Of a stretch of 64,000 nt of DNA, positions 1-60,294 are shown in pieces. Under the pieces are notes generated by a model, which saw nothing but the letters and a program-made list of their open reading frames with translations, did not search any database and was not told the origin of the DNA. The DNA is taken from positions 5,182 to 69,181 of IMG/VR virus record IMGVR_UViG_3300008448_000063, one strand, 5' to 3'. A program made the position numbers and the translations under genes. Positions within the stretch are counted from its first letter, which is position 1, and the number at the start of each line of letters is the position of its first letter. Source of the stretch: a virus.

Positions 1-2460
1 AATGCCCCATCCAATACATTGAAGAATAGTTTTCAATGGGTCAATAAAACTCTTTTCAAACTGAAGTTCATAGTCAACATATTTCACAAGATTTAATTCT
101 TTTGGAAACTGTTGAATAAAGGATAGTACATTTTCCCTAATTGGATTAGCCTTTTTCAAATAACAAAATTTAATCTTTTCGCCATTATTAATAAAAGGAT
201 ATTTATTATCCAAGTTGTGTTGCTTGATATAGTGATTATACAGCAAGCATCCTCTGATGTGAATGGGACATCCTTTCTCATAGATTGAACTATAAGACCT
301 ATACTTGTTAATGTTATTTGCTGTTCTGGGGAAGGAAATTTCCTCAGGAGGCAATGCATAGAAAGTCTTCCTAGACTTATCAATGTAATTGATCAAGTCA
401 TCCTCAGTTTTAGTCATGATAAGTTTAAGAGCATCCTTAATCATTTGCCTACAAGGTGCAGGTGTAGATGACTTAACTGCCTCAATACCCATGATCTTTA
501 GTTTAGGTTCAGAATACCTAACTCCTTCAGAATCCCATACATTCAAAATGTATCTCTTCTTAGCAGTCCAGATTCCACGATCAGCAATGTTTTCTCGCTT
601 CATCTGCATCTTCTGAGCATAAGCATTTACATAGTCAGCCAGTTCTTGGTAAGAACTTTCAATATAAGGCTCAAGTTCCATTTTACAGATCTTATCAAGG
701 AACCCAACAACTTTCTCATTAACCTTCTCTCTGCCTTTGTATACACTGTTGACCAAAGGACCCATATTAAGGTAAATAGAATCAGTATCCGAAGCAATAA
801 CATAATCAACATCATTGGTCTTAAGAATTTTGTTTAAGTAAGTGTTCATTTTATTTTCAATCCATCTGATAGATACCTGACCAGATAGAGTGACTGCTTC
901 TGCATTTTCAATCCTAAAATACCTAAAGTATTCATTACCTACAGCACCATAGGCAGAATTAAGTTGAATCTTTCTTGCTAATTGAATGTTGTTGCAACGA
1001 GCAATTTCCTTCTCCAATTCTTTGGTTGGTGTTTTCTCATACTCCTGCTTAGCAGCAAGCATCTTCTTTTTGTAGATTGTTCTTTCACTATAAATTTTAT
1101 CCATTAGTTCAGGAAGAAATCCTCTAACATCTTTCCTAAACATTGCACCATTGGCACAAACAGCATACTGTTTATAATTGTCAAAATCTACAGACTTATT
1201 AAGAATTTTGTCTACTGATATATTTGGATGCCTTTCTTCCAAAAGAGTTTCTGGAGAAATATTGTACATCATGATTAGGTGAGGATATAGAGAGTTCAAG
1301 TCAAAACTCACAACCCAATCATACTTACCAGGAATTGGTTCCTTTACATATGCACCTGCATACTTAGAATCCTTTTTAGTATCTTTCTTAAAGGGAATAA
1401 CAATGTCCTTAGACCTTAAGTAATTGTAGATGATGGAATCCCACATCCTTACCTGATAAAACACATCATTGAAATTGCACTTAGCATCATATGCCATAGT
1501 AATTGCAAGTTCAATAAGACGCATTTTATCTTCAAGTCTATCTACAAGTTCTACGTCTTTGATGTTGTATTCTACAAACTTTTGCCAGTCCTTTGTATAA
1601 AACTCTTTAAAAGTATCATACTCAGAGTGATCCAACTTATTCTGCCCAAGTTCAACAAAGGCAATGTGATCAAGACGATAAGACTCCTGATTTGTATAAG
1701 TAAACTTCTTATACAATTCAAGATAGTCTAGAACTGTAGTACCTGCAATATCATACCTAGTATGAGGTCTACCATTTACAATGACTTGATTTTCAGTAAC
1801 AATTCCCCAAGTAGAAAGTTGTTTAGCAACCTTCTCTCCAAGAACTTTAGATATTCTCCTATAAAGATAGGGAATATCATAATACTCACAATTCCATCCA
1901 GTGACTACTTCCGGACAATTCTGTTCCCAATAAAACATGAATCTATCCAAAAGATCATACTCACTATTACAATGAATATAATTTACATTTGGATTAGTGT
2001 TAAGGAAAGGTTTAATTCCCCAGGTAATAATCTTTTTAGTAGAGTAATCCTGAATGGAAATTGTTAGCACTTCTTCTTGAACTGATTCAACATCTGGGAA
2101 TCCCTTCTCAGATGCAACCTCAATGTCAATTGTAATTAATTTGATTTTAGAAATATCAAACTTAATTGATTCTTCTTTATAGTTTTCTGAAATATATTGA
2201 TTGATATACCTAGTGTTTCCATAGAGTTGAAAGTTATCAATCTTTTGATACTTATCAATGAACTCTCTGGTTTCCCTAATAGTTCCTGGTTTAACTTCTT
2301 CTACGTATTTCCCTTCAAGAGTCTTAAATTTAGTTTTCTTATTGCTAGTTACATACAAAGTTGGGTAGAACATTTGTCTGTTTTTGAAATGTTCTCCATT
2401 ATCAAACCCTCTAGAAAGTATTTCATTTCCAACAAGAACTACATTGGTATAAAAATTCAT
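1..2460 (-). CDS. gp43: Family B DNA polymerase (3' end runs off the left edge of the window)
   Basis: Hand translation from ATG at 2460 gives MNFYTNVVLVGNEILSRGFD. Exo I (TIDIEVASE), motif A (WVVSFDLNSLYPHLI), motif B (KIQLNSAYGAVGN) and motif C (IASDTDS) are present. Absent from the ORF track because the stop lies outside the window. Confidence 0.97.
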   Translation of the reverse strand, partial: MNFYTNVVLVGNEILSRGFDNGEHFKNRQMFYPTLYVTSNKKTKFKTLEGKYVEEVKPGTIRETREFIDKYQKIDNFQLYGNTRYINQYISENYKEESIKFDISKIKLITIDIEVASEKGFPDVESVQEEVLTISIQDYSTKKIITWGIKPFLNTNPNVNYIHCNSEYDLLDRFMFYWEQNCPEVVTGWNCEYYDIPYLYRRISKVLGEKVAKQLSTWGIVTENQVIVNGRPHTRYDIAGTTVLDYLELYKKFTYTNQESYRLDHIAFVELGQNKLDHSEYDTFKEFYTKDWQKFVEYNIKDVELVDRLEDKMRLIELAITMAYDAKCNFNDVFYQVRMWDSIIYNYLRSKDIVIPFKKDTKKDSKYAGAYVKEPIPGKYDWVVSFDLNSLYPHLIMMYNISPETLLEERHPNISVDKILNKSVDFDNYKQYAVCANGAMFRKDVRGFLPELMDKIYSERTIYKKKMLAAKQEYEKTPTKELEKEIARCNNIQLARKIQLNSAYGAVGNEYFRYFRIENAEAVTLSGQVSIRWIENKMNTYLNKILKTNDVDYVIASDTDSIYLNMGPLVNSVYKGREKVNEKVVGFLDKICKMELEPYIESSYQELADYVNAYAQKMQMKRENIADRGIWTAKKRYILNVWDSEGVRYSEPKLKIMGIEAVKSSTPAPCRQMIKDALKLIMTKTEDDLINYIDKSRKTFYALPPEEISFPRTANNINKYRSYSSIYEKGCPIHIRGCLLYNHYIKQHNLDNKYPFINNGEKIKFCYLKKANPIRENVLSFIQQFPKELNLVKYVDYELQFEKSFIDPLKTILQCIGWGI

Positions 2461-2723
2461 TTAATAGTTTTCAAATAAAGTTCAATTTGATCTGGTTTTG
2501 GATCTACAATAGTAAAGATTGAATCTGAGTGAATCTTAAGTTCTCTCTGATCAGTAAATACTGGCCACTTTCTCATCTCATATGAAGTTGAGTTTGAAAT
2601 AAGCATTTGAACTGGATTAACCAATTTACAATCAGGTTCTCCCAAATCTGCTCCAGCAACTTCATGTACCTCAGTCATCAGAATGGAATCATTCTTCAGA
2701 ATCAGAATTTTCAGGTTTTGCAT
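2457..2723 (-). CDS. Conserved T4-like cyanophage hypothetical protein (possible Sm-like fold)
   Basis: ORF abuts gp43; N-terminal KILILK and LxNP pattern shared with the neighbouring ORF. Confidence 0.75.
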   Translation of the reverse strand: MQNLKILILKNDSILMTEVHEVAGADLGEPDCKLVNPVQMLISNSTSYEMRKWPVFTDQRELKIHSDSIFTIVDPKPDQIELYLKTIK

Positions 2724-2970
2724 TTACACTCTCCAAATAAGATTTAGCAACTTCATCAATAGGATCAACCATAGTTACCACCCAATCAGAAGGAATTTTA
2801 ATTGTTGTTTCTTTAGACAGGGGGATGTATGGATAAAATCCAATCTTGTCTCCATCAAGTCTAGTTACATATGGATTACTCAACTCATACCATTTTCCAA
2901 GAATATCTTCAGAAGTAACATCAGCAATGACATCTTCTAAAGATTTCAGGATTAAAAGTTTAACAGACAT
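2689..2970 (-). CDS. Conserved T4-like cyanophage hypothetical protein (possible Sm-like fold)
   Basis: MSVKLLILKSLEDVIADV...LSNPY...VVTMVDP; typical position between hsp20 and gp43. Confidence 0.75.
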   Translation of the reverse strand: MSVKLLILKSLEDVIADVTSEDILGKWYELSNPYVTRLDGDKIGFYPYIPLSKETTIKIPSDWVVTMVDPIDEVAKSYLESVNAKPENSDSEE

Positions 2971-3688
2971 AATTTTCCAAAGTAAGTGTTTTATCTTGAA
3001 GTTTTAAGATGTGATCAGCAAGTTTATCTATGTAACCTTTGTTTCTAAGTTCTTTAAAAACAAGATTCTCAAAGGAGAATTCTCCCCCCTTGTCTAAACC
3101 TGCATTTCTCATATCTCTGAGTTTAGATAGAAGATTTTTTAAAACATCTTCATCAGTTGCAGTGGCAACTGTTCTATCTATTTTCCTCATCATATCATGA
3201 ACCTTGCTATTAAGCAAGTCAGTATCCAGTTCTCCAGTGAATTTGCCAGGAAGCATCACCCACTTTTTATATTTTATTGAGTAGACTCCTTGATTCTTTC
3301 TTCTCTTTTTACCAATGTCCTCTACATATGGTTCAATGTCATGTCCATAAATCTTAGCATTGTGTGTTAACTTCCAAAGTTGTTTCTTATCCTCATACAT
3401 ATCAGATGCCAAATCTGGACACTCTGTTGCTTGCTTGAGGTCTACAACTATATGAAGATCTAAATCTGAGTACCTTGTGTAATTATATCCTGCATTCCCT
3501 CCCAGCAATAAAATATCTTGAACTGATGACTTTTTCAGTCCTACAAATTCAGTCCAGGCATCTGCTACTTTTTTTAAATGCTTTGATACTTCAGGTTTTA
3601 ATTTATCATTGACCCAAAATTTAGGATTAAGTTGTGTATTAACCTTAAAAGATATTGATTCCTCAAGGAATTGATTATATGTTTTCAT
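2960..3688 (-). CDS. Pol-beta superfamily nucleotidyltransferase with N-terminal capsid-targeting-like sequence
   Basis: LLGGNAGYNYTRYSDLDLHI matches hG[GS]x9-13DhDh; candidate third acidic residue in HDIEPYV; N-terminus MKTYNQFLEE. Confidence 0.75.
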   Translation of the reverse strand: MKTYNQFLEESISFKVNTQLNPKFWVNDKLKPEVSKHLKKVADAWTEFVGLKKSSVQDILLLGGNAGYNYTRYSDLDLHIVVDLKQATECPDLASDMYEDKKQLWKLTHNAKIYGHDIEPYVEDIGKKRRKNQGVYSIKYKKWVMLPGKFTGELDTDLLNSKVHDMMRKIDRTVATATDEDVLKNLLSKLRDMRNAGLDKGGEFSFENLVFKELRNKGYIDKLADHILKLQDKTLTLENYVC

Positions 3689-3702
3689 TAACCCTTTTTA
3701 GA

Positions 3703-3710
3703 TATTTATA
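3703..3710 (-). promoter_or_regulatory. T4-type late promoter (TATAAATA) upstream of the nucleotidyltransferase gene
   Basis: Exact TATAAATA on the minus strand, 14 nt before the ATG. Confidence 0.8.
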
Positions 3711-3750
3711 AAAAAGGGGGGGATGGATGGTCTTAGTCATCCTCCCCCTT
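3710..3750 (-). terminator. Rho-independent terminator after hsp20
   Basis: GGGGGAGGATG...CATCC-A-TCCCCC stem followed by a T-tract. Confidence 0.75.
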
Positions 3751-3773
3751 GCGCCGACGATATTCTTAATTAT

Positions 3774-4208
3774 TTAGAACCAAACTCTTTTCTTCTGATG
3801 TTCAGGTACAATCTTAGAAAGTTTAATTGAAAGAAGACCATCCTCAAATGCAACTTCTCTTACTTCAACATCATCTGAAATTGTCCATACTCTAGTGAAT
3901 GCTCTATTGGCAAGTCCATGGTGCACATATTCTTTGTCATTATTAACTTCTCTTTCCCCCTCAATGAAGAGTTTATTGTTTTCTGTATAGACAGTAATCT
4001 GATCTTTCTTAAATCCTGCAAGAGCAACTTCCACTCTAAACTCAGTATTACTCTCTTTAATTACATTATATGGAGGATAGTTTGTATCTGTTTGATGCAG
4101 TGCTCCCATTCTATGGAACCATTCATCCATTCCAATAGAATACTTATCAATATCATTTAAGAATTTTTCAATGTTTGAGGCGTTATATTTCGCTAATGTG
4201 TTGTACAT
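3774..4208 (-). CDS. hsp20: Small heat-shock protein Hsp20 (IbpA family)
   Basis: NYPPYNVIK, VEVALAGF, HHGLANRAFTR and FEDGLLSIKL alpha-crystallin motifs; AGGAG RBS. Confidence 0.95.
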   Translation of the reverse strand: MYNTLAKYNASNIEKFLNDIDKYSIGMDEWFHRMGALHQTDTNYPPYNVIKESNTEFRVEVALAGFKKDQITVYTENNKLFIEGEREVNNDKEYVHHGLANRAFTRVWTISDDVEVREVAFEDGLLSIKLSKIVPEHQKKRVWF

Positions 4209-4281: not shown

Positions 4282-4306
4282 AAAAAAAGGGGATAGTAAT
4301 ATCCCC
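4282..4306 (-). terminator. Rho-independent terminator after regA
   Basis: GGGGATA-TTAC-TATCCCC followed by T7. Confidence 0.85.
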
Positions 4307-4753: not shown

Positions 4754-5136
4754 TTTCTTCCTCCAGTTTCAAGTTTAGATTTAATAAAGTTAATTTGGTC
4801 TTCTGAGAGAATTCTCAAAGCTTGTTTTGCCTTTTCATTACTATAACCATAGTAAGATTTAACTACTTCAAGATCTTTGATTTTTTCTTGTTTAATCCAA
4901 GGAGAGTATCTTTTCCTTGTTCTGACACTATTTATAAAAAAGTCATATTGCATTTTCTTAGGCAATGAATGATTCTTATTCATTTCATTTGCATACATCA
5001 AAGTATCAATAGTCCCAGACAAACATCTGTTGATAATATATGGTGGATAATCTTTCTCTGAAGATGGATCTTCATCCAGAATATTAATTTTGGATTGATT
5101 AATTGACCCCAACCAATCTTTTAGTTCATGCTTCAT
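4750..5136 (-). CDS. gp62: Clamp loader small subunit
   Basis: YPPYIINRCLS, MQYDFFINSVR, VKSYYGYSNEKAKQAL; synteny upstream of regA. Confidence 0.93.
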   Translation of the reverse strand: MKHELKDWLGSINQSKINILDEDPSSEKDYPPYIINRCLSGTIDTLMYANEMNKNHSLPKKMQYDFFINSVRTRKRYSPWIKQEKIKDLEVVKSYYGYSNEKAKQALRILSEDQINFIKSKLETGGRK

Positions 5137-5956
5137 AATTAATAAGAACCAATTCCTTCCTCTGGTGTTGTTCCATCATATATTCTCCCACTGACCTCAT
5201 AGTGTATGTGTGGGCAAACTCAAATGCTTTCCAATCTTTAAATCTATTTCTAACCAACTGAGTAGAATTATAACTTACCATCATATCCATGTTAGGCACA
5301 GAATCACAATCAGCAGCAAACTTATCGTGATCAAATCCTTTGTGCATTGATCCTTTGTTCCCATAGAGATTATCCTTAATATCATAAGGAGGATCAAGAT
5401 AGAGAAAAACAGTACCATCTCCATCCAACATCTGATTGTAGGAATAATTAGTTATATTCCACTTCTCAATCAATTTAGAATACTCTGGAAGTTTCTCAAT
5501 TCCTCTAACTGAAAAATTGTTTTCTGATGCTTGTGCAGAGAAAGAAGAACTTTCAGTCAATCCACTAAAAGAACACTTATTCAAAACATAAAAAGATACT
5601 GCTCTATCAAATGGTTTTGATTTAGGATGAGCAAGACATTCTTTAGACTCTGCAAATAAAAGTCTTGCTCTGTCTGGTGTTGAATAAGTTTGTTTTAAGT
5701 TTAAGATCTGCTCTGTAAATTTTTCTCCTTCGGACTGAAGAACTTTCCAAAAATTTACCAGTGGTTCATATAAGTCATTTACCCAAATAGAAATATCTGG
5801 GTACTGTTTTGTGACTGCAATTGCCATAGAACCACCACCAACAAATGGTTCTCTAAATTCTCTATAATTGTAGAGGTCTGGAAGATGCTGAAACAGTTTA
5901 GGAACTGCTCTAGACTTTCCTCCAGGGTAACGAAGACAAGTTTTAAGGGATTTCAT
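5126..5956 (-). CDS. dam: DNA adenine methyltransferase (Dam/D12 class)
   Basis: LRYPGGKS, EPFVGGGS (motif I), YLDPPY (motif IV). Confidence 0.93.
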   Translation of the reverse strand: MKSLKTCLRYPGGKSRAVPKLFQHLPDLYNYREFREPFVGGGSMAIAVTKQYPDISIWVNDLYEPLVNFWKVLQSEGEKFTEQILNLKQTYSTPDRARLLFAESKECLAHPKSKPFDRAVSFYVLNKCSFSGLTESSSFSAQASENNFSVRGIEKLPEYSKLIEKWNITNYSYNQMLDGDGTVFLYLDPPYDIKDNLYGNKGSMHKGFDHDKFAADCDSVPNMDMMVSYNSTQLVRNRFKDWKAFEFAHTYTMRSVGEYMMEQHQRKELVLINYEA

Positions 5957-6137: not shown

Positions 6138-7078
6138 TTAAAATTACACTCCACCATAATTTCAGTTAGTGCTGCCAGAAGATTAATTTCCTGATCAGCA
6201 ACAAAAGCAGATTGATACTGGTACTTAGCAACAATCAAAACTGTAGCAGCAATACTAGGACCATCTAACTTCTCATAAAGAGAATCATAAACTTTTCTAA
6301 GGATTGTAGAAGAATCATTATCTAAGTTCAAAGAAACCCATTTCCTAACCTCAGGAAAGTTCTTTTCCTTTAGATGTTTAATTAAATCAGTTACTGTTAC
6401 ATCACTGAAGGATGTAAGAATTCCAGAATCAATTTCTCCACCAACAGAATACCTTTGGCATTCATTTAGAACTCTCCTCCAGTCAGGGAAATGAGTATTG
6501 ATTATTTGTGCAATAACCTTTTGATCATACTTAATACTCTCTTCCTCAAGAATAAACCCGAGACGCTTGAAGAATTCTCCTGCAAGTTTTGCTTTTTCTT
6601 TTCCTTTGATTGAGAATTCAACAACTGCACATCGAGAGTGAAGAGGTTCAATAATTTTGTTTTTGTAGTTGCAAGTAAAGATGAATCTACAGTTTTTATA
6701 GAACGTCTCAATATTTGCCCTAAGTAGGAGTTGTACATCTGTGGTGGTATTGTCTGCTTCGTCAATAATGATGACTTTATGTTTTCCAGTTGCTTGAAGT
6801 GATACGGTCGAAGCAAAGTTCTTTGCTTGATTCCTGACAGTATCGAGAAATCTCCCTTCATCTGATCCATTGATGACATAATAATCTACTCCTAGTTCTT
6901 CACATAATGCTTTTGCTACTGTGGTTTTACCACATCCTGCAGGACCTGCAAGAAGTAGATTTGGGATTTCTCCACCATCTACAAATTCTTGAAATGTCTT
7001 TTTAATGCCTGCAGGCAAAATGCAATCTTCAATTTTCTTTGGGCGATATTTTTCTACCCACAAAAAGTCTTTACTCAT
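6134..7078 (-). CDS. gp44: Clamp loader AAA+ ATPase subunit
   Basis: LWVEKYRP, Walker A GPAGCGKT, Walker B IIIDEAD, SRC motif. Confidence 0.97.
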   Translation of the reverse strand: MSKDFLWVEKYRPKKIEDCILPAGIKKTFQEFVDGGEIPNLLLAGPAGCGKTTVAKALCEELGVDYYVINGSDEGRFLDTVRNQAKNFASTVSLQATGKHKVIIIDEADNTTTDVQLLLRANIETFYKNCRFIFTCNYKNKIIEPLHSRCAVVEFSIKGKEKAKLAGEFFKRLGFILEEESIKYDQKVIAQIINTHFPDWRRVLNECQRYSVGGEIDSGILTSFSDVTVTDLIKHLKEKNFPEVRKWVSLNLDNDSSTILRKVYDSLYEKLDGPSIAATVLIVAKYQYQSAFVADQEINLLAALTEIMVECNFK

Positions 7079-7080
7079 AA

Positions 7081-7227
7081 TCAAATAGGTTGAGGTCCTC
7101 CAACAATTATAGCAGATGGAATCTGTGCCTGAGCAATCTTCTTTGCTTGGGACTGACTATCTGCATCAACAACAACTTCCAGATAACGATTATCACCTGG
7201 AAGTTTATATCTTACTTTATACCTCAT
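7081..7227 (-). CDS. 48-aa hypothetical protein (MRYKVRYKLPGDNRYLEVVVDADSQSQAKKIAQAQ...)
   Basis: Hand-translated; exactly fills the gp45-gp44 gap and overlaps the gp45 stop (ATGA). Confidence 0.7.
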   Translation of the reverse strand: MRYKVRYKLPGDNRYLEVVVDADSQSQAKKIAQAQIPSAIIVGGPQPI

Positions 7228-7889
7228 TCAAAGGTTGAATCTGGTTCAAGTGCAATAAAGTACTTCAGATTATACTTCTCATTCACAAATTTAGCAGAGA
7301 GTTTCTTAGAAATAACCACATCATAAGAACCTGGAATAATCTTAATATTCTCCACTTTAAAGTTAAAAACAAACTCATCATCAGTTTCTCCAACAATGAT
7401 TGAGTACTCATTAGATGTATCATTGTTCTTGTCTCTAACTACCAGACTGATAACACCATTTGCTCCAATAGCAGAAAGGTCTGGAAGTTTATACACTGCA
7501 GAAGCTTTGATAAGTTTATCCAACTGAGAATGCTCCAATTGGAAACAAACATCTTGAGTTGGAAGATCAATATCTTTGTCTGGAGGAGACACAATCACTT
7601 CAGGATCTGCATAGAAATACTTAACTCTACGCTTACCCTCTTTAATTGTCAGATATGATTCATTAGTAAAATCCAAATCTGGGTCTTGATGCAAACTCAA
7701 ACCATTAAGGAATTCATTTAGATCATAAATTGCAAAGTCCTTCCCAAACTCTTCCTCAACATCAGCAACAGCATAGATGTTCCTGAGAATGGAAATAGTT
7801 TTGATCTGAGATCCTTGTTTGACCAGGATTGATTGATTAATATTAGAAAAGTTTTTAAGGATAGTAATAGTGTTGTCGGAAAGTTTCAT
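7224..7889 (-). CDS. gp45: Sliding clamp
   Basis: MKLSDNTITILKNFSNINQSI, FAIYDLNEFL, YFIALEPDS. Confidence 0.96.
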   Translation of the reverse strand: MKLSDNTITILKNFSNINQSILVKQGSQIKTISILRNIYAVADVEEEFGKDFAIYDLNEFLNGLSLHQDPDLDFTNESYLTIKEGKRRVKYFYADPEVIVSPPDKDIDLPTQDVCFQLEHSQLDKLIKASAVYKLPDLSAIGANGVISLVVRDKNNDTSNEYSIIVGETDDEFVFNFKVENIKIIPGSYDVVISKKLSAKFVNEKYNLKYFIALEPDSTFE

Positions 7890-8323
7890 CACTTGTTTTC
7901 AACTAGGTTAAGGTGGTTAATGAGAAGGATAGTATAGTGCAGGACTTTGAACAAGTCTGCACGAGGAGTCCCTTTAGTATCATACCTATCAATGTACTTA
8001 GTTACATTGCCAGCACAAAAACCTTCTCTACGATTGTGTTTGATCTTGTCTAGGGTCTGCTCTGTTCCTTCCCCAGTTCTATCAACATAATGCTGACTAT
8101 ATGTTGACTTAATATATTCTTCTAGTTGCTTGAGAATTTTATCCTCATTGTATTTCCAAAATCCATTATCTTTAGTCATAGTTTCCTCAAAAGTAATATA
8201 ATCAGGGGATTGTGGAGGAATCCAAAATCCCTCCCCACTCATAGACCATCCACCTTCTGCTGCTTGTGTCCAAGTCATACTATCAGCAGGAAGTTTCACA
8301 ATGTCCTCATCAGGTCCAAACAT
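7889..8323 (-). CDS. Conserved cyanophage hypothetical protein (DUF3310-like C-terminus)
   Basis: YIKSTYSQHY, GFCAGNVTKYIDRY, DLFKVLHY. Confidence 0.7.
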   Translation of the reverse strand: MFGPDEDIVKLPADSMTWTQAAEGGWSMSGEGFWIPPQSPDYITFEETMTKDNGFWKYNEDKILKQLEEYIKSTYSQHYVDRTGEGTEQTLDKIKHNRREGFCAGNVTKYIDRYDTKGTPRADLFKVLHYTILLINHLNLVENK

Positions 8324-10336: not shown

Positions 10337-11367
10337 TATCCTAATTGAAATGCTTCTTGATAAATTGAATTAACGAGTTCCTTAATTCTATTTTTATTTA
10401 ACTCAATTTCAGATTCATCAATATACTTTTTAAGCAGAGATAATGTATCTTCATTTTCAACTATCTTATCTACATCAATATCTTGATTGATGACTACTTC
10501 TTCTATGATTTTAAGATCTTGTAGTCCAGATTCCAATAGAAAGTCAAGAAACTTTTCATACTTAACCTTATCTTTCTTCTCCTTAATAATCATTTTTACC
10601 ATACAACCTTCATAATCTTGAAGATCATACATTGCATCATCCCTATAATAAATGATTTTAAACATTTCATAAGGATTTTCAATTGTAGTTATCTCATAAG
10701 TCTCTGTATCAAATATAACAAATCCTCTTTTATCATTATAGTCTGACCAGTACAATTGATAAGGATTTCCTATGTAATAAATTTTGCCATCATCACTTCT
10801 AGTATGATAATGTCCAGAAAATACCCTATCAAACTTTTTAAATATATCTGCATCTCTTCCATTGACCTGAGAATGCCCTCTCTGAGGATAGAAACCATTT
10901 AGTTCTAAATGACCCATAGCAATCTTTGCAGGGGTCTCCTTGATGGCATTCAGGGCATTCTGCTCACCTTCTGGAGTAATCCATGGAATAAAAAGAATAT
11001 CAGTACCTCCAACATTAACTGTTTCTGGAGATGTCATGATTTTTATATTTTTATAATCTCCCATCAACAAGATTGGACTATTTAATTCTGTAGTGTTCTT
11101 GTAGAAGATATCATGATTACCTACAGTTAAGTATACTTTATATTTTTTTAAAGGTTCTAAGATAACTCTTTTAGTCCAATCAATGCTCCAGTAGTCTGTT
11201 GCTTTTCTGTTATCAAAAATATCCCCCATGTGGATAACAGTATCTACATTATATTTTTTTAATGTAGGGAAGAAGACATTTTTGTAAAACTTTTCAAAAT
11301 ACTCATGGAAAACTTTATTTCCTTTCTTGAAGTTGAAATGAGTATCAGTAATTATAGCTACTTTCAT
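10336..11367 (-). CDS. gp47: Recombination endonuclease nuclease subunit (Mre11/SbcD-like)
   Basis: Metallophosphoesterase motifs DTH, GDIFD, GNHD, GH, SGHYH. Confidence 0.96.
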   Translation of the reverse strand: MKVAIITDTHFNFKKGNKVFHEYFEKFYKNVFFPTLKKYNVDTVIHMGDIFDNRKATDYWSIDWTKRVILEPLKKYKVYLTVGNHDIFYKNTTELNSPILLMGDYKNIKIMTSPETVNVGGTDILFIPWITPEGEQNALNAIKETPAKIAMGHLELNGFYPQRGHSQVNGRDADIFKKFDRVFSGHYHTRSDDGKIYYIGNPYQLYWSDYNDKRGFVIFDTETYEITTIENPYEMFKIIYYRDDAMYDLQDYEGCMVKMIIKEKKDKVKYEKFLDFLLESGLQDLKIIEEVVINQDIDVDKIVENEDTLSLLKKYIDESEIELNKNRIKELVNSIYQEAFQLG

Positions 11368-11855
11368 TGGGAGAATCTATAATTAATTCCATCTTTGATA
11401 CCATTGAAGTCTGAATAATCTCCACCAAGATCAGAGGTATCTGCAGTAAATACTTGATCAAATCCAGATCTTTCAATAATTTTAGTCTTAATTTCTAATT
11501 GTTTCTTCTCCTTTGCAATTCTTCTCAAGAATGCATAGTAGACAATTTGAGTAAAGTAAGCAAATGGATTAGTTCTCTTAATATCAAAATTATCGATGTA
11601 TTGGATACAGTTTTCTATTCCATCACAAATCATCTCATCCTTAAACATATAATTTACAAAGTTTGGTTTATATGCTAGATGATTTGCAATTCTTAGGAAA
11701 CAATCACCAATATAATTACTGACCTTAGGTTTGGGTAGTCCTTGCTCCTTTGCACTATCTACCTTCTTCCTATACTCAACAAGAGCAGTATAGAAATCTT
11801 TATTGTTTACATAATGTTCTGATTTCTTTTTTGTTCTGGACATTACCAATGACAT
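11364..11855 (-). CDS. gp55: Late-transcription sigma factor
   Basis: HYVNNKDF, PNFVNY, DGIENC, NPFAYFTQIVYYAFLRRI. Confidence 0.96.
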   Translation of the reverse strand: MSLVMSRTKKKSEHYVNNKDFYTALVEYRKKVDSAKEQGLPKPKVSNYIGDCFLRIANHLAYKPNFVNYMFKDEMICDGIENCIQYIDNFDIKRTNPFAYFTQIVYYAFLRRIAKEKKQLEIKTKIIERSGFDQVFTADTSDLGGDYSDFNGIKDGINYRFSQ

Positions 11856-16416: not shown

Positions 16417-17553
16417 TCACTTAGAGTATTTTCCTAATGCTCTGAGGTAAGCATTCATCTGAGGACCGTAATCCGCATTTGCTTCCTCTGTAAGCATTTC
16501 CTCTCTTGTTGAAGAAACTGGTGTTTTTGTAAAATATGACTCTTTAAGAGTCTCCAGCTTCTCACGATAGTCTACTTCACCTTCAAACTCAACACTTTCA
16601 GCAAGACTTGCAAGCTTTTCCTTCTGAGTTAAAGCTAACCCTTCAGAAACATCATTTAAGATTGTATCACTTACAGCTTCACTAAGTCTCTTGTTTAACT
16701 GAACATTTCTTTCGATTTGTTCGTTGAGTTTTTCCTCCATTTCATCTAGTCTTTCGACCATTCCTTCTAGGACATCATATTTCTCTTCAGGGATGTTTAC
16801 ATAATGTTCTTCAAAAAGTCCCATCAGGTTTGTCATAAATGACTCTGACAGTTGTGACTTGATTCCTGTTTCTACTTGAAGAGCATTCTCATTGAGCCAC
16901 TCTTCAGAAACATACTCAAGATAAGAATCAACTCTTTCGGTTAATTCTTCTCTGATTTCGGTAACTTCATCTACAAGCTTCTGTTGATAATCTTCTTCCA
17001 GAGCCTCCATTACAGCAACGAGTTTTGACTTAACAGCAGCTTCAAAAATTGTTGCTGCCTTCTTCATAAACTCTTCACTCAGATCCTCACCCTCCATAAG
17101 GGCATTGATATCTTCTGAGTAATCTACTCTTTCATTAGCAATTTGATCTAATCTCTCTTCTAATGAAATTGTTTCTTCCTCTTCAATTTGATCTACAGTA
17201 TCTTCGGAAAATTCTTCTTCAGAAATTACTTCCTCATCCTCAGACTCAACTTCCTCATAGCTAACTTTTGCTTTGTTAAGATGTTGCATTGCATCAGGTG
17301 CTTTTGCACCCTTGTTTACAACATTGCTTACCTTAGCAAGAGTTTTGCCAGGAGTCTTCAGTTTATTTGACTCATCATCTGGCTTTGAGTTCTGGGGAGT
17401 AGGTCCTCCCAGATCTTCTACTGAAGATGACAGACCTTCACCAGGAATGTCTGCCTTGTGCATCGCCTCTGCAGGCTTTGCACTTTTGTTTACTGCAGTA
17501 GTAGATTTTTTAGTAGATACTTCCATTTCTTGTAAATCGTTACCGACACTCAT
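16417..17553 (-). CDS. gp22: Prohead core scaffold protein
   Basis: Acidic coiled-coil protein, LSEEFMKKAATIFEAAV, VDSYLEYVSEEW; between gp21 and gp23. Confidence 0.93.
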   Translation of the reverse strand: MSVGNDLQEMEVSTKKSTTAVNKSAKPAEAMHKADIPGEGLSSSVEDLGGPTPQNSKPDDESNKLKTPGKTLAKVSNVVNKGAKAPDAMQHLNKAKVSYEEVESEDEEVISEEEFSEDTVDQIEEEETISLEERLDQIANERVDYSEDINALMEGEDLSEEFMKKAATIFEAAVKSKLVAVMEALEEDYQQKLVDEVTEIREELTERVDSYLEYVSEEWLNENALQVETGIKSQLSESFMTNLMGLFEEHYVNIPEEKYDVLEGMVERLDEMEEKLNEQIERNVQLNKRLSEAVSDTILNDVSEGLALTQKEKLASLAESVEFEGEVDYREKLETLKESYFTKTPVSSTREEMLTEEANADYGPQMNAYLRALGKYSK

Positions 17554-17608: not shown

Positions 17609-18259
17609 TTATAGATTTAAAAGGTACTCTCCAAAGAGAGCTAATTTATTTTGTTCTGTTAGTTTTCTTTGTTTTGAAAGATGTTCAATCTTCTTTCTAG
17701 TTTCTTCTGCATTCATTTCTTTAAGAATGCCACCATCCCATACCCATTCTTTACCTTCCATAATGCCTTGAACAAAAGCATCAGGTGCAGATGGATCTGC
17801 TACAATATCAGCAGCAGTTGCAAGCATAAAGTCTTCGCCTACATACTTGATTCCATTTTTTTCTACCAGTGAACCAATACCTCTAGATGATACACCAAGA
17901 GTTACACCTTCTCCCAAAAGGGATTTAGCAATATTGCCCATTGGAGTGTCAAGAATTTTTGCCCTTCCAATGAAATTGGTGCCTTCTTTTCTGAGGTTTG
18001 TGATCATGTGAGAAACTCTATCCAGATTTACTGTTGGACCATCTGGATGACCAAGCTCACCTAATGCTCTGCCTTTAGAAATAAAACTTTGAGTATATCT
18101 GTTAACTTCTCTTTCCATAATAGAAAGAGGATAGTTTCTACCATTTCTATTGGTAACTTCTGCTTGAAGGAAAGGTCCCTGAATATACAGAGTCTTTACT
18201 CCATTTTTTTCTTCAGTAATAATTTCTACTGATTCTATTTCTTCTGTGATAAGTTTCAT
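17609..18259 (-). CDS. gp21: Prohead protease
   Basis: MKLITE, NRNGRNY, GELGHP, GVSSRGIGS, DIVADPSAPDAFV. Confidence 0.97.
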   Translation of the reverse strand: MKLITEEIESVEIITEEKNGVKTLYIQGPFLQAEVTNRNGRNYPLSIMEREVNRYTQSFISKGRALGELGHPDGPTVNLDRVSHMITNLRKEGTNFIGRAKILDTPMGNIAKSLLGEGVTLGVSSRGIGSLVEKNGIKYVGEDFMLATAADIVADPSAPDAFVQGIMEGKEWVWDGGILKEMNAEETRKKIEHLSKQRKLTEQNKLALFGEYLLNL

Positions 18260-54793: not shown

Positions 54794-54964
54794 TTAATCC
54801 TCAATACTTATCGATTCTACCATAATGTCCTCTGGTTTGGGAACCCCTGTCTCATAATATTGTTGAGACAGGTCATCCATTGTATCCATTAGATCTTCTT
54901 CGGAAAGATCTTTATAAATCACTCTACCATTACAGAGAATATTATATAACTCTTGTTTTTTCAT
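54794..54964 (-). CDS. 56-aa acidic hypothetical protein (MKKQELYNILCNGRVIYKDLSEEDLMD...)
   Basis: Hand-translated; fills the gap between the glycosyltransferase and the basic peptide. Confidence 0.65.
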   Translation of the reverse strand: MKKQELYNILCNGRVIYKDLSEEDLMDTMDDLSQQYYETGVPKPEDIMVESISIED

Positions 54965-55703
54965 GTCCTACTCTGATCTTTGGATGACACCAAATTTCAA
55001 AATCACATTTACGAGTTGCATCAAGACAGAATGATACATCCTCACCACACATATCCTGAACTTCACCAGAATCAAACACCTGCATCTGAGGTGCAAACCA
55101 TGGATACTTCATTTCTGGATGTTCAAACACACCCTTCTTGATCAGTACCCAACCAAAACCAGTATAATCAACAGTGAATGGTTTCTTTCTATTAGAGATA
55201 GTATCTACCATCTCATGATTCATAACCCCACCATTGTTTTTAAAGTCTGCTTCATCTAACCAATGAGCAACTGATGTAGTTCTTCCATCCTCTGTAGCAT
55301 ACCATCCACAAGCAATGTCCTTATCCATCTGTACAAGACCCCAGAAGGCATCGCCACTGAACACAATGTCGCTATCAATCCAGAGTTGATAATCATACTC
55401 TAAACGACCTTGCCAAGGCAGTTGATCTGGTCCTGCCAATACATTTGCCCCAAGAACTTTACATCTTGCAAAGTTCACCATGGAAGAATAATCTTGAGAA
55501 ATCTGAATCTTTGCGCCTGCCTGAACTAAATCAAAACACAACTGAACAAAGTTCTTCAGGAAAATATATGATACACCTCTTCCTGGAAGACAGAAAACTA
55601 TACTCTTACCCCTAATTCGTTCCTTACACTCCTCAAGATTATAAAGTGGTTCTTCTTCGTCCTGAGAAGGATTTTTTGCTTTTACAGTAAATCCTTTTGC
55701 CAT
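54942..55703 (-). CDS. Glycosyltransferase family 2-like protein
   Basis: DxD motif in LWIDSDIVF, TGFGWVLIKKGVFE, GEDVSFC, VGHEK. Confidence 0.75.
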   Translation of the reverse strand: MAKGFTVKAKNPSQDEEEPLYNLEECKERIRGKSIVFCLPGRGVSYIFLKNFVQLCFDLVQAGAKIQISQDYSSMVNFARCKVLGANVLAGPDQLPWQGRLEYDYQLWIDSDIVFSGDAFWGLVQMDKDIACGWYATEDGRTTSVAHWLDEADFKNNGGVMNHEMVDTISNRKKPFTVDYTGFGWVLIKKGVFEHPEMKYPWFAPQMQVFDSGEVQDMCGEDVSFCLDATRKCDFEIWCHPKIRVGHEKTRVI

Positions 55704-58444: not shown

Positions 58445-58873
58445 TCAGAAGTTTTTGTGGAAGATGTATCCATCAACAAAGGAGAAATCATACCTCAGAT
58501 TTACATTCCAGGTAGCACTCCAATCAATCACAACTGGCATATCTTGCAGACTGTTAGGATAGCAGTCATTTACAAATTGCTCTGCAAATTGTTCCTCACT
58601 GTCATACTGTCCATAATAGGCATCAGTGAAATGTGCAATGCACTCAATACCAAACTCATCTACAAATGCATCAACTACCTCATAAGAATAGTCCTCACCA
58701 TTCTCTACATATTCCTCATAATAAGCAAGGAAGTTTTCTTCCCCATGCTCACTGATGAAGACCAACATATCCTCATCATAATAGTTTTGCTCTTTCAGTT
58801 CATCAATTTTTGCCTGAACTTCAGAGGAGAAAGTAACAACAGCAGTCATTTGATTAGTGGTTTGATTTTCCAT
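58445..58873 (-). CDS. ArdA-like antirestriction (DNA mimic) protein
   Basis: Very acidic; DAYYGQYDSEEQFAEQFV...IDWSATW...GYIF resembles the ArdA C-terminal domain; leaderless start. Confidence 0.65.
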   Translation of the reverse strand: MENQTTNQMTAVVTFSSEVQAKIDELKEQNYYDEDMLVFISEHGEENFLAYYEEYVENGEDYSYEVVDAFVDEFGIECIAHFTDAYYGQYDSEEQFAEQFVNDCYPNSLQDMPVVIDWSATWNVNLRYDFSFVDGYIFHKNF

Positions 58874-59758: not shown

Positions 59759-60229
59759 TCATTTATCACCATAACTTGCCCAGAAATCATCATTATGGGA
59801 TGGACGAATGCAGTCTACACCATGATCACGAATAACTGCAGCATTGTATGGAGAATCATCAACCCAGAATTGAATATCCCAGAACCTACAAATGTCCATC
59901 AGTTGTTGACCCTTACACTGTGAACCAGTTGCATCATCATCTGCATTTTTCATGTAGAGAGCATCAAACTCTGGCAAATGTTGCTGCAACCAGTATGCTG
60001 TGCCCTCTGCATAAGTATCAGGACGTGCAGTTGCAATGACTAGATCAAATCCCTGAGATTTGCAATACTTGGCAACATCAACAACAGCATCAATAGCAGG
60101 GAATTGATCACACTCATCAAACCCAGACTGTGAACCATGATGACACAGAGTTGCATCTAGATCGAATACAACGCACTTAGGGTTGGAAACGTTGTAGATG
60201 ACTTTAGAAAAGGATTTTGTTTTTTGCAT
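59759..60229 (-). CDS. HAD-family phosphatase, like the T4 PNK (PseT) 3'-phosphatase domain
   Basis: Motif I VFDLDATL, motif II ATARPD, motif III K, motif IV VDDS; leaderless start MQKTK. Confidence 0.8.
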   Translation of the reverse strand: MQKTKSFSKVIYNVSNPKCVVFDLDATLCHHGSQSGFDECDQFPAIDAVVDVAKYCKSQGFDLVIATARPDTYAEGTAYWLQQHLPEFDALYMKNADDDATGSQCKGQQLMDICRFWDIQFWVDDSPYNAAVIRDHGVDCIRPSHNDDFWASYGDK

Positions 60230-60294
60230 GAGTGTATTATAGGGCATTTTCAAGGATTTGTCAAGTGATTTGTGCCACTAGTACATGTGGCACA
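60227..60294 (-). promoter_or_regulatory. Early composite promoter, copy 4 (leaderless, consensus sigma70)
   Basis: TGTGCCACA-N6-AGTGGCACA, TTGACA-17-TATAAT-ACACTC-ATG. Confidence 0.88.

Follow-up and report, generated by a model that had tools for sequence, protein, structure and literature searches.

A gene on the minus strand of a viral DNA window (64,000 nt, positions 5,182 to 69,181 of IMG/VR record IMGVR_UViG_3300008448_000063; coordinates below are counted from the first letter of the window) encodes a 242-residue protein that is likely to be an active nucleotidyltransferase (NTase) of the Pol-beta superfamily carried as cargo in the phage head, that is, transcribed late, directed into the head by an N-terminal tag, relieved of that tag, retained and injected. 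In the model that we propose, transcription would begin late in infection at a gp55-type TATAAATA promoter right after the terminator of the upstream gene, hsp20. The first ten residues, MKTYNQFLEE, would act like the capsid targeting sequence (CTS) of T4 and bring the protein into the gp22 scaffolding core of the prohead, where a gp21-type prohead protease would cut after E10 (L-E-E/S). The mature enzyme of about 27 kDa would stay in the filled head and enter the next host together with the DNA, able to act there before any phage gene is expressed. Packaging is probable on three independent lines of support, namely the tag, a homolog found in virions and late promoters across the family, and it is from these that we infer packaging, cleavage and injection in this particular phage. 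A sequence-only reading of the same DNA had pointed to a Pol-beta NTase motif, to an exact late promoter directly behind the hsp20 terminator and to the MKTYNQFLEE N-terminus, and all three are present at the following positions.

2960..3688, minus strand: NTase gene, 242 amino acids, from the open reading frame (ORF) list; PHROG 36119 (E 1.5e-57), function unknown
3659..3688, minus strand: candidate CTS, codons 1-10, MKTYNQFLEE, from its likeness to the T4 CTS; cleavage predicted after E10
3452..3502, minus strand: GGNAGYNYTRYSDLDLH, residues 63-79, a G[GS]-x10-D-x-D active-site motif that aligns to the motif of minimal NTases in the PDB
3332..3334, minus strand: E119, candidate third catalytic carboxylate, from conservation in family alignments
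3703..3710, minus strand: T4-type late promoter TATAAATA, 14 nt upstream of the NTase ATG; the motif also stands before the capsid, scaffold and sheath genes
3692..3696, minus strand: Shine-Dalgarno-like AAGGG, from sequence inspection
3710..3748, minus strand: hsp20 intrinsic terminator, a predicted fold with a homologous hairpin in Synechococcus phage DSL-LC03

An N-terminus resembling the capsid targeting sequence of T4

The internal proteins (IPs) of T4 are reported to be cut once beside a tag of about ten residues, MKTYQEFIAE, and foreign fusions bearing it are encapsidated (bioRxiv 10.1101/2021.01.19.427310; review PMC3012670). According to a review of the suppressor (amber) genetics of this tag, residues 4 and 7 serve targeting and residues 8 and 10 serve processing, and a tag with D10 has its cleavage blocked while its targeting is unaffected (PMC9026906). 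These three sources agree with what the sequence-only reading had stated of the IPIII tag and of its cleavage. MKTYNQFLEE has Y4, F7, L8 and E10 and so matches T4 at all four functional positions. Nine close relatives (64-100% identity) have Y or F as residue 4, F as residue 7, one of L, V or F as residue 8 and E as residue 10; residues 3, 5, 6 and 9 differ among them. To search for further copies, the tag was written as the expression M[KR].[FYL]..[FYLV][LIVFY].[ED], required to begin an open frame of at least 40 amino acids, and applied in six frames; in the whole 69-kb contig that holds the window it had a single match, the NTase gene itself.

We also asked whether the tag belongs to the fold of the NTase and ruled this out. 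It stands at the start of only 8 of the best 150 representatives of the family, and some members begin directly at the first conserved strand. The homologs of Lak megaphage and of Maribacter phage Molly are without it, and that of the T4-like Caulobacter phage Cr30 begins MRKFSQLLED. Because most members lack the tag and unrelated enzymes bear it, the tag appears to be portable and separate from the NTase fold.

Tag scans in other phage genomes

The same expression was applied in six frames to the whole genome of the related cyanophage S-CREM2 (174,876 bp), where it had three matches, all at annotated starts: ORF6 (an S-adenosylmethionine (SAM) hydrolase), ORF13 and ORF154 (a cytidylyltransferase). 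All three are listed in the S-CREM2 virion proteome, which comprises 52 proteins from CsCl-purified particles (PMC10665884, Table 3). Of 20 shuffled versions of the genome, 19 gave no match and one gave a single match. We consider the tag, as a predicted signal, shown to be specific for virion proteins in S-CREM2. Looser forms occur as well. ORF14, a kinase with 21 peptides in virions, has a GTG start and reads KRFDAFLTEE; ORF136 (MQTFSMFFSE) and ORF15 (MNFSEFNESL) are variants whose products are both in the reported proteome; and ORF175 is a loose match outside it. The promoter motif TATAAATA lies upstream of ORF6, ORF15 and ORF154, and ORF6-15 sit among DNA-metabolism genes, as the window NTase does.

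A second scan used a back-translated DNA pattern of the tag, with the reversed pattern as control, and gave the following matches.

T4: 3 matches, ipII, ipIII and gp61.1
S-CRM01: 2 matches, one of them g127, NMNAT-like, two genes upstream of the NTase homolog g125
DSL-LC02: 4 matches, one of them a 57-amino-acid ORF directly upstream of the NTase
DSL-LC03: 4 matches
S-CREM2: 2 matches

The reversed pattern matched nothing in any of these genomes. In five IMG/VR records with family members there were 5 matches of the tag pattern against 1 of the control, and the closest relative carries the tag on both its NTase and a kinase-like gene. Full-text literature searches turned up no description of a CTS in cyanophages, and the accessible portions of the S-CREM2 paper (PMC10665884) make no mention of an N-terminal tag.

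Three small loci met in these scans deserve description in their own right. On the minus strand of S-CREM2 (OR473000.1, 3837-13331), ORF6 and ORF12-15 encode a SAM-hydrolase-like protein, a Cas9-like nuclease, a kinase and small proteins; all products of this cluster are in virions according to the published table, and four have tag-like N-termini. The T4 gene gp61.1 (NC_000866.4, 18966-19130) encodes a hypothetical protein of 54 amino acids beside the primase gene and begins MKTFKEFIKED, a near-copy of the CTS of IPII and IPIII. In DSL-LC02 the NTase begins with the non-canonical MNLQEFVDKK, and the tagged mini-protein lies directly in front of it: the 57-amino-acid ORF (3819-3992 of the locus) starts MKTFQDFLEE, has a Gly/Asp-rich tail and overlaps the NTase start by 4 nt (ATGA).

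A homolog in virions

The S-CREM2 proteome also includes a member of the NTase family. ORF156 is 40% identical to the window NTase over 232 residues (E 9e-63) and was reported in S-CREM2 virions from 6 unique peptides with 15.2% coverage (PMC10665884, Table 3). ORF154 and ORF155, which belong to the same late operon as ORF156, are likewise listed there. The NMNAT-like cytidylyltransferase has been found in virions of two phages, S-SM1 (PMC3037559) and S-CREM2 (PMC10665884).

A late promoter directly behind the hsp20 terminator

After the hsp20 stop codon, a stem-loop at 3718-3748 is followed by a U-run at 3710-3715. The predicted fold has an energy of -26.5 kcal/mol (z = -3.05), and none of 200 shuffled sequences was as stable; its stem of 11 bp is G+C-rich with one bulge. 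The run's final U coincides with the first T of TATAAATA, so that promoter and terminator abut, and the AAGGG stands between TATAAATA and the NTase ATG. The accepted late promoter motif of cyanomyoviruses is NATAAATA (review PMC2984593). Counted on both strands of the window, TATAAATA is not over-represented (7 observed against 8.3 +/- 2.8 expected). All 7 copies lie on the coding strand, however, and 5 of them fall within or border the intergenic 7% of the window, directly 5′ of the starts of the NTase, the major capsid protein, the scaffold, the tail sheath and an ORF after the portal gene. In the replication block from gp43 to gp55, the copy before the NTase is the sole intergenic NATAAATA. 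The motif is thus non-random by position, though not by count.

To examine the promoter across the family, we kept the best 80 viral loci from 589 stretches confirmed as relatives and took the other same-strand ORFs of at least 80 amino acids within those loci for comparison. Either TATAAATA or CTAAATA lies at most 60 nt upstream of the NTase in 48 of the 80 loci (39 of 69 distinct sequences), against 25 of 502 other ORFs; exact TATAAATA at most 30 nt upstream was found for the NTase in 22 of 80 loci against 4 of 507 other ORFs. Individual genomes repeat the arrangement of the window. In Synechococcus phage DSL-LC03 the homologous hairpin and then ACTAAATA precede the NTase, and in Synechococcus phage DSL-LC02 a terminator and then TATAAATA do so. 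S-CREM2 has its family member at a different locus, where the gp55 terminator and TATAAATA are followed by ORF154-155-156. At the hsp20 position of S-CREM2, where the NTase is absent, the terminator is present without TATAAATA; the same position in ACG-2014f, again free of the NTase, has the terminator followed by a -10-like TGTTATAAT instead. Because both NTase-free positions lack TATAAATA, the late promoter seems to travel with the NTase, although the sample of two genomes is small. A scan of the minus strand from 2426 to 4135 placed no sigma-70-type promoter above its threshold before the NTase or the DUF6561 genes that follow it, and inspection of the 3′ end of the NTase gene by eye revealed nothing convincing as a promoter.

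Assignment to the Pol-beta nucleotidyltransferase superfamily

Members of the Pol-beta superfamily carry the signature hG[GS], 9-13 residues, then [DE]h[DE]h. In the window protein the corresponding stretch is L-G-G63/64, ten residues and D75-L-D77-L. In an alignment of 46 diverse family members, G63, S74, D75, D77, H79, W143, P147, R194, G202, K212 and R215 are invariant (46/46), and K162 is conserved in at least 90%. E119, a candidate third catalytic carboxylate by the pattern of Pol-beta NTases, is invariant in two family alignments and kept in at least 90% of the third, that of the 46 members. The catalytic motif is followed by a conserved, helical C-terminal half rich in K and R.

Several of these relatives match curated NTase models. 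At E <= 0.05, PF01909 (NTP_transf_2) is matched by 29 of the 46 members (best 2e-06) and PF18765 by 7; a poly(A)-polymerase palm model gives weak matches to 12, and the SidM/DrrA N-domain is matched by 3. A relative with tandem domains (P0129) matches a curated NTase model at E 1.1e-09. NCBIfam MntA_antitoxin (4/46) and PADLOC PDC-S09 (27/46) are also hit, all below their curated thresholds. When the family profile was compared with the PDB, the catalytic stretch aligned with 2rff_A (E 0.026), MNT 8xeh_E (E 0.19) and DrrA (E 0.67), all below significance; a second family profile likewise had sub-threshold PDB matches only. Among the Pfam matches of the 46 members at E <= 0.05 there is no CCA-adding family (PolyA_pol head domain) and no CD-NTase family, the sole cyclase-type match being to PADLOC Cyclase (1/46, E 0.0014); nor do the Pfam matches of these members include a family for RlaP, the RNA-ligase-associated NTase mentioned for jumbo phages. 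From these comparisons we conclude that the protein is, as predicted from its sequence, a Pol-beta-superfamily NTase with a core nearest to the MntA-type minimal adenylyltransferases and with an extra domain of its own, and we infer that it is catalytically active. As a first guess, it may modify a host protein or RNA end with a nucleotide, probably AMP, and so serve counter-defence or take-over; we name such targets because the nearest relatives of the core adenylylate proteins.

The conserved active site bears on a reading in which the protein would be a component of head assembly only, entering the prohead core by its tag and then being degraded or expelled like scaffold, with no role after injection. 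The core proteins of T4 are mostly degraded after assembly (bioRxiv 10.1101/2021.01.19.427310), and S-CREM2 virions are reported to hold protease and scaffold at low peptide counts (PMC10665884). The intact and strongly conserved catalytic motif and the C-terminal domain argue instead for an enzymatic role, and the tag-bearing proteins of T4 are described in the same preprint as cut once and retained. We regard an assembly-only function as very improbable.

A large phage family with conserved neighbours and fusions

The family is extensive. One search found at least 700 relatives of similar length at E <= 0.001, and an exhaustive search found 3772 cluster representatives at E <= 0.001, of which 916 were at E <= 1e-30. 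The Atlas clusters of the family are 99-100% viral. PHROG 36119 is a large, mainly phage-borne and uncharacterised family. The gene upstream of the NTase is HSP20 in 45 of 68 distinct viral loci, and the gene downstream is DUF6561 in 55 of 69. Because the order hsp20 - NTase - DUF6561 - (gp43) is conserved in this way, the NTase is better described as an old resident of its position than as a recent insertion, and the earlier notion of a late gene inserted into the replication block did not hold.

Many relatives are considerably longer than the window protein: among the best 150 representatives, 108 exceed 280 amino acids and 15 exceed 1000. We scanned 30 long relatives for domains and found Amidoligase_2 in 11; phage lysozyme or GH19, ParB-like nuclease, cytidine deaminase, metallopeptidase and cytidylyltransferase domains were also found. 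One giant NTase protein in jumbo-phage contigs adjoins a cytidyltransferase and a metallophosphoesterase. A multidomain, polyvalent architecture of this kind has been proposed for proteins injected with phage DNA (PMC5512222), and the fusions to lysozyme-bearing giant proteins point to delivery of the NTase as a possible theme of the family. The NMNAT-like cytidylyltransferase is linked to the NTase in several ways, sharing an operon with it in S-CREM2 and S-CRM01, lying nearby in Cr30 and in the jumbo-phage locus, and being fused to it in P0179 and P0262.

Evidence against packaging and alternative readings

Several observations weigh against the protein being an enzyme packaged by means of its tag. 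A strict tag is found in only 17 of the 80 viral NTase loci, and other groups of NTases have N-termini such as MNLEEFVDKK, [ML]YSRVLRHIKPKDLRE and MKTYRDLKLTL. The tag of the window protein runs directly into the first conserved strand of the NTase (ISF...), and for this reason the access of a protease to the tag is uncertain. The pattern perhaps is not fully specific, since it matched gp61.1 in T4, which is not annotated as an internal protein. ORF156, the sole family member seen in virions, starts MKKLISELKL; as this does not fit the expression, its packaging is not explained by the tag. The authors of the S-CREM2 study further caution that late proteins, where abundant, may be carried along in CsCl purification (PMC10665884). 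As for the enzymatic part of the reading, the window protein itself had no Pfam match at E <= 0.1 and no significant match in NCBIfam or, by sequence search, in the PDB, and its membership of the superfamily rests on transitive homology because it is the relatives that match curated NTase models. Finally, the late promoter is not private to the NTase: it also heads the DUF6561-DUF6561-gp43 chain, and late-type promoters have been proposed to aid middle expression of cyanomyovirus replication genes (PMC2984593).

Some of these points lend support to a view of the protein as a late cytoplasmic enzyme that is left unpackaged and acts in the producing cell, on RNA ends, progeny DNA or host proteins, its likeness to the T4 tag being convergent or functionless. 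The late promoter alone would fit such an enzyme, as would the rarity of the tag both among the best representatives and among the viral loci, and the detection of the S-CREM2 homolog, which is without a canonical tag, could be carry-over of the sort that the authors concede. The four functional positions of the tag are nevertheless kept in close relatives while the others drift, the matches of the expression in S-CREM2 are all reported virion proteins, and the fusions with lysozyme-bearing giants favour delivery. On balance an unpackaged late enzyme seems to us unlikely.

The promoter raises a second alternative, that of an accessory of the replication block. The sequence-only reading had called TATAAATA the gene's own; it does head the NTase gene, but it stands ahead of the three overlapping genes behind it too, and it could be the middle or late promoter of an NTase-DUF6561-DUF6561-gp43 operon in which the NTase partners the Sm-like DUF6561 proteins or the replisome, for example in RNA tailing or in primer or end processing. 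The NTase, both DUF6561 genes and gp43 are probably co-transcribed because they overlap one another, and no terminator lies between them. The conserved gene order on both sides of the NTase, the proposal of late-type promoters for replication genes in the review cited above and the weak matches of some members to the poly(A)-polymerase palm model would all agree with such a role. Against it, DUF6561-gp43 stays in place in NTase-free phages, behind a terminator that is followed by no TATAAATA in S-CREM2 and by the -10-like element in ACG-2014f, whereas the NTase of S-CREM2 and S-CRM01 sits elsewhere, beside a tagged cytidylyltransferase. A replication role would also leave the tag unexplained, and we judge it quite improbable. 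Head cargo remains the reading that we prefer, and the proposal of a late, tagged, packaged and injected enzyme, first made from the letters of this window, has gained comparative backing from the S-CREM2 tag scan, the virion homolog and the family promoters; for this phage that backing is indirect.

Relation to known delivery systems

The closest parallel is with IPII and IPIII of T4, and with IPI, which have a ten-residue tag with the same targeting (Y4, F7) and processing (I/L8, E10) residues. As with the NTase, these proteins have a late promoter and gp21 and gp22 in the genome, and the tag can move between unrelated proteins. As cargo, the T4 IPs are small and highly basic, being non-enzymatic or anti-restriction proteins, whereas the NTase is a predicted 27-kDa enzyme with an isoelectric point of 8.9. 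The route proposed for the NTase is also like that of T4 Alt, a head-packaged ADP-ribosyltransferase that is described as injected with the DNA and acting on host macromolecules before phage transcription (PMC5512222). Alt differs in fold and in chemistry (ADP-ribosyl rather than nucleotidyl transfer), and its targets are known.

The nearest sequence neighbours of the catalytic core are MntA/MNT of type VII toxin-antitoxin systems, with matches confined to the G[GS]..D.D stretch. MntA/MNT is a minimal NTase of about 100-140 amino acids paired with a HEPN (HepT) toxin gene, and this antitoxin adenylylates HepT. In contrast, the window NTase is about twice as long at 242 amino acids, with an extra conserved C-terminal domain, and its neighbours are hsp20 and DUF6561, with no HEPN partner gene. 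The NMNAT-like cytidylyltransferase of cyanomyoviruses resembles the NTase in another way, as a virion protein with the same tag in S-CREM2 and S-CRM01 and as a gene repeatedly linked to the NTase; it is a HIGH-motif Rossmann NTase of a different superfamily and is not homologous to the window NTase.

With the polyvalent proteins of Iyer et al. 2017 (PMC5512222), NTase-domain relatives of 1000-1791 amino acids share the theme of multi-enzyme injected proteins. Polyvalent proteins need at least two disparate effector domains; the window NTase is a single-domain protein, whereas many of its relatives qualify. We asked whether the NTase family described in that work is the same family and rejected the identity: theirs is a minimal version that occurs in conjugative elements of firmicutes and, according to the authors, is not present in polyvalent proteins of the phage type.

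The NTase probably extends the tag-and-cleave delivery system of T4 to a new enzymatic cargo and to a new range of hosts. The T4 CTS is a textbook element of phage biology whose known carriers are mainly internal proteins of coliphages, and T4-like cyanophages rank among the most abundant viruses on Earth. If ocean cyanophages load enzymes into their heads by means of this tag, the injected protein dose would be readable from genome sequence alone; a large NTase family would be assigned a time and place of action, in the new host and before phage transcription; and the odd metabolic enzymes that recur in cyanophage virion proteomes would be explained. A bolder extension, which we offer as speculation and think unlikely, is that T4-like marine phages widely use the family as a first-strike enzyme. 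It would be a head-packaged adenylyltransferase, injected with the DNA and working like MntA in trans, that within seconds of entry nucleotidylates, and thereby disarms, a host effector of abortive infection (a HEPN RNase, for example) or some other protein or RNA of the host, and it would belong to a tagged cargo kit of kinase, SAM-hydrolase-like protein, NMNAT-like cytidylyltransferase and NTase that cyanophages send to the capsid with the ten-residue tag known from T4.

Genome setting and neighbouring genes

The window comes from a viral contig of 69,181 bp with 34% G+C. All its recognisable genes lie on the minus strand, in an order typical of T4-like cyanomyoviruses, and the major capsid protein of the contig shares 72-74% identity with its counterparts in Synechococcus and Prochlorococcus myoviruses. 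The window holds tail and packaging genes (baseplate, tail, terminase, sheath, tube and portal) and head genes (prohead protease gp21, scaffold gp22 and major capsid protein gp23). Next along it are UvsY, UvsW and gp55, then gp47/46, gp45, gp44, a Dam methylase, gp62 and RegA, and the block ends with hsp20, the NTase gene, two DUF6561 genes and the DNA polymerase gp43. The features of this setting that bear on the NTase are as follows.

3774..4208, minus strand: hsp20, upstream neighbour of the NTase (Pfam HSP20, E 5.8e-17)
2457..2970, minus strand: two DUF6561 (Sm-like) genes, which overlap one another as well as the stop of the NTase gene and the start of gp43
1..2460, minus strand: DNA polymerase gp43, last gene of the overlapping chain, which runs off the window (ORF list, gene assignment)
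17609..18259, minus strand: gp21-type prohead protease, predicted to cleave off the tag (match to PHROG head maturation protease at E 2e-82; 41% identity to T4 gp21, E 2.7e-26)
16417..17553, minus strand: gp22-type scaffolding core protein, belonging to the assembly core that receives tagged cargo in T4 (PHROG head scaffolding protein, E 1.6e-106)
11364-11855, minus strand: gp55, from a gene scan of the window

The regA terminator (4289-4306) and the hsp20 terminator (3710-3748), both on the minus strand, bracket hsp20, which is thus probably a transcription unit of its own inside the replication block because intrinsic terminators lie on both sides. For the DUF6561 pair at 2457-2970, relatives give weak Sm-like matches, and ACG-2014f, which has no NTase at the hsp20 position, likewise has two hypothetical genes before gp43. 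The Dam-type DNA adenine methyltransferase gene (5126-5956, minus strand) is part of the clamp-loader block, with gp44 on one side and gp62 on the other. An early-type region on the minus strand holds a PHROG 'anti-restriction protein' (E 2.3e-31) and a polynucleotide-kinase-like gene, at 58445-58873 and 59759-60247. A protein of PHROG 1574 (function unknown), encoded at 54942-55703 on the minus strand, has GATAAATA 50 nt upstream of it, and in a jumbo-phage contig its homolog directly precedes a giant NTase-amidoligase protein (7043-7933 of that locus); though untagged, the PHROG 1574 protein may belong to the cargo gene set as well.

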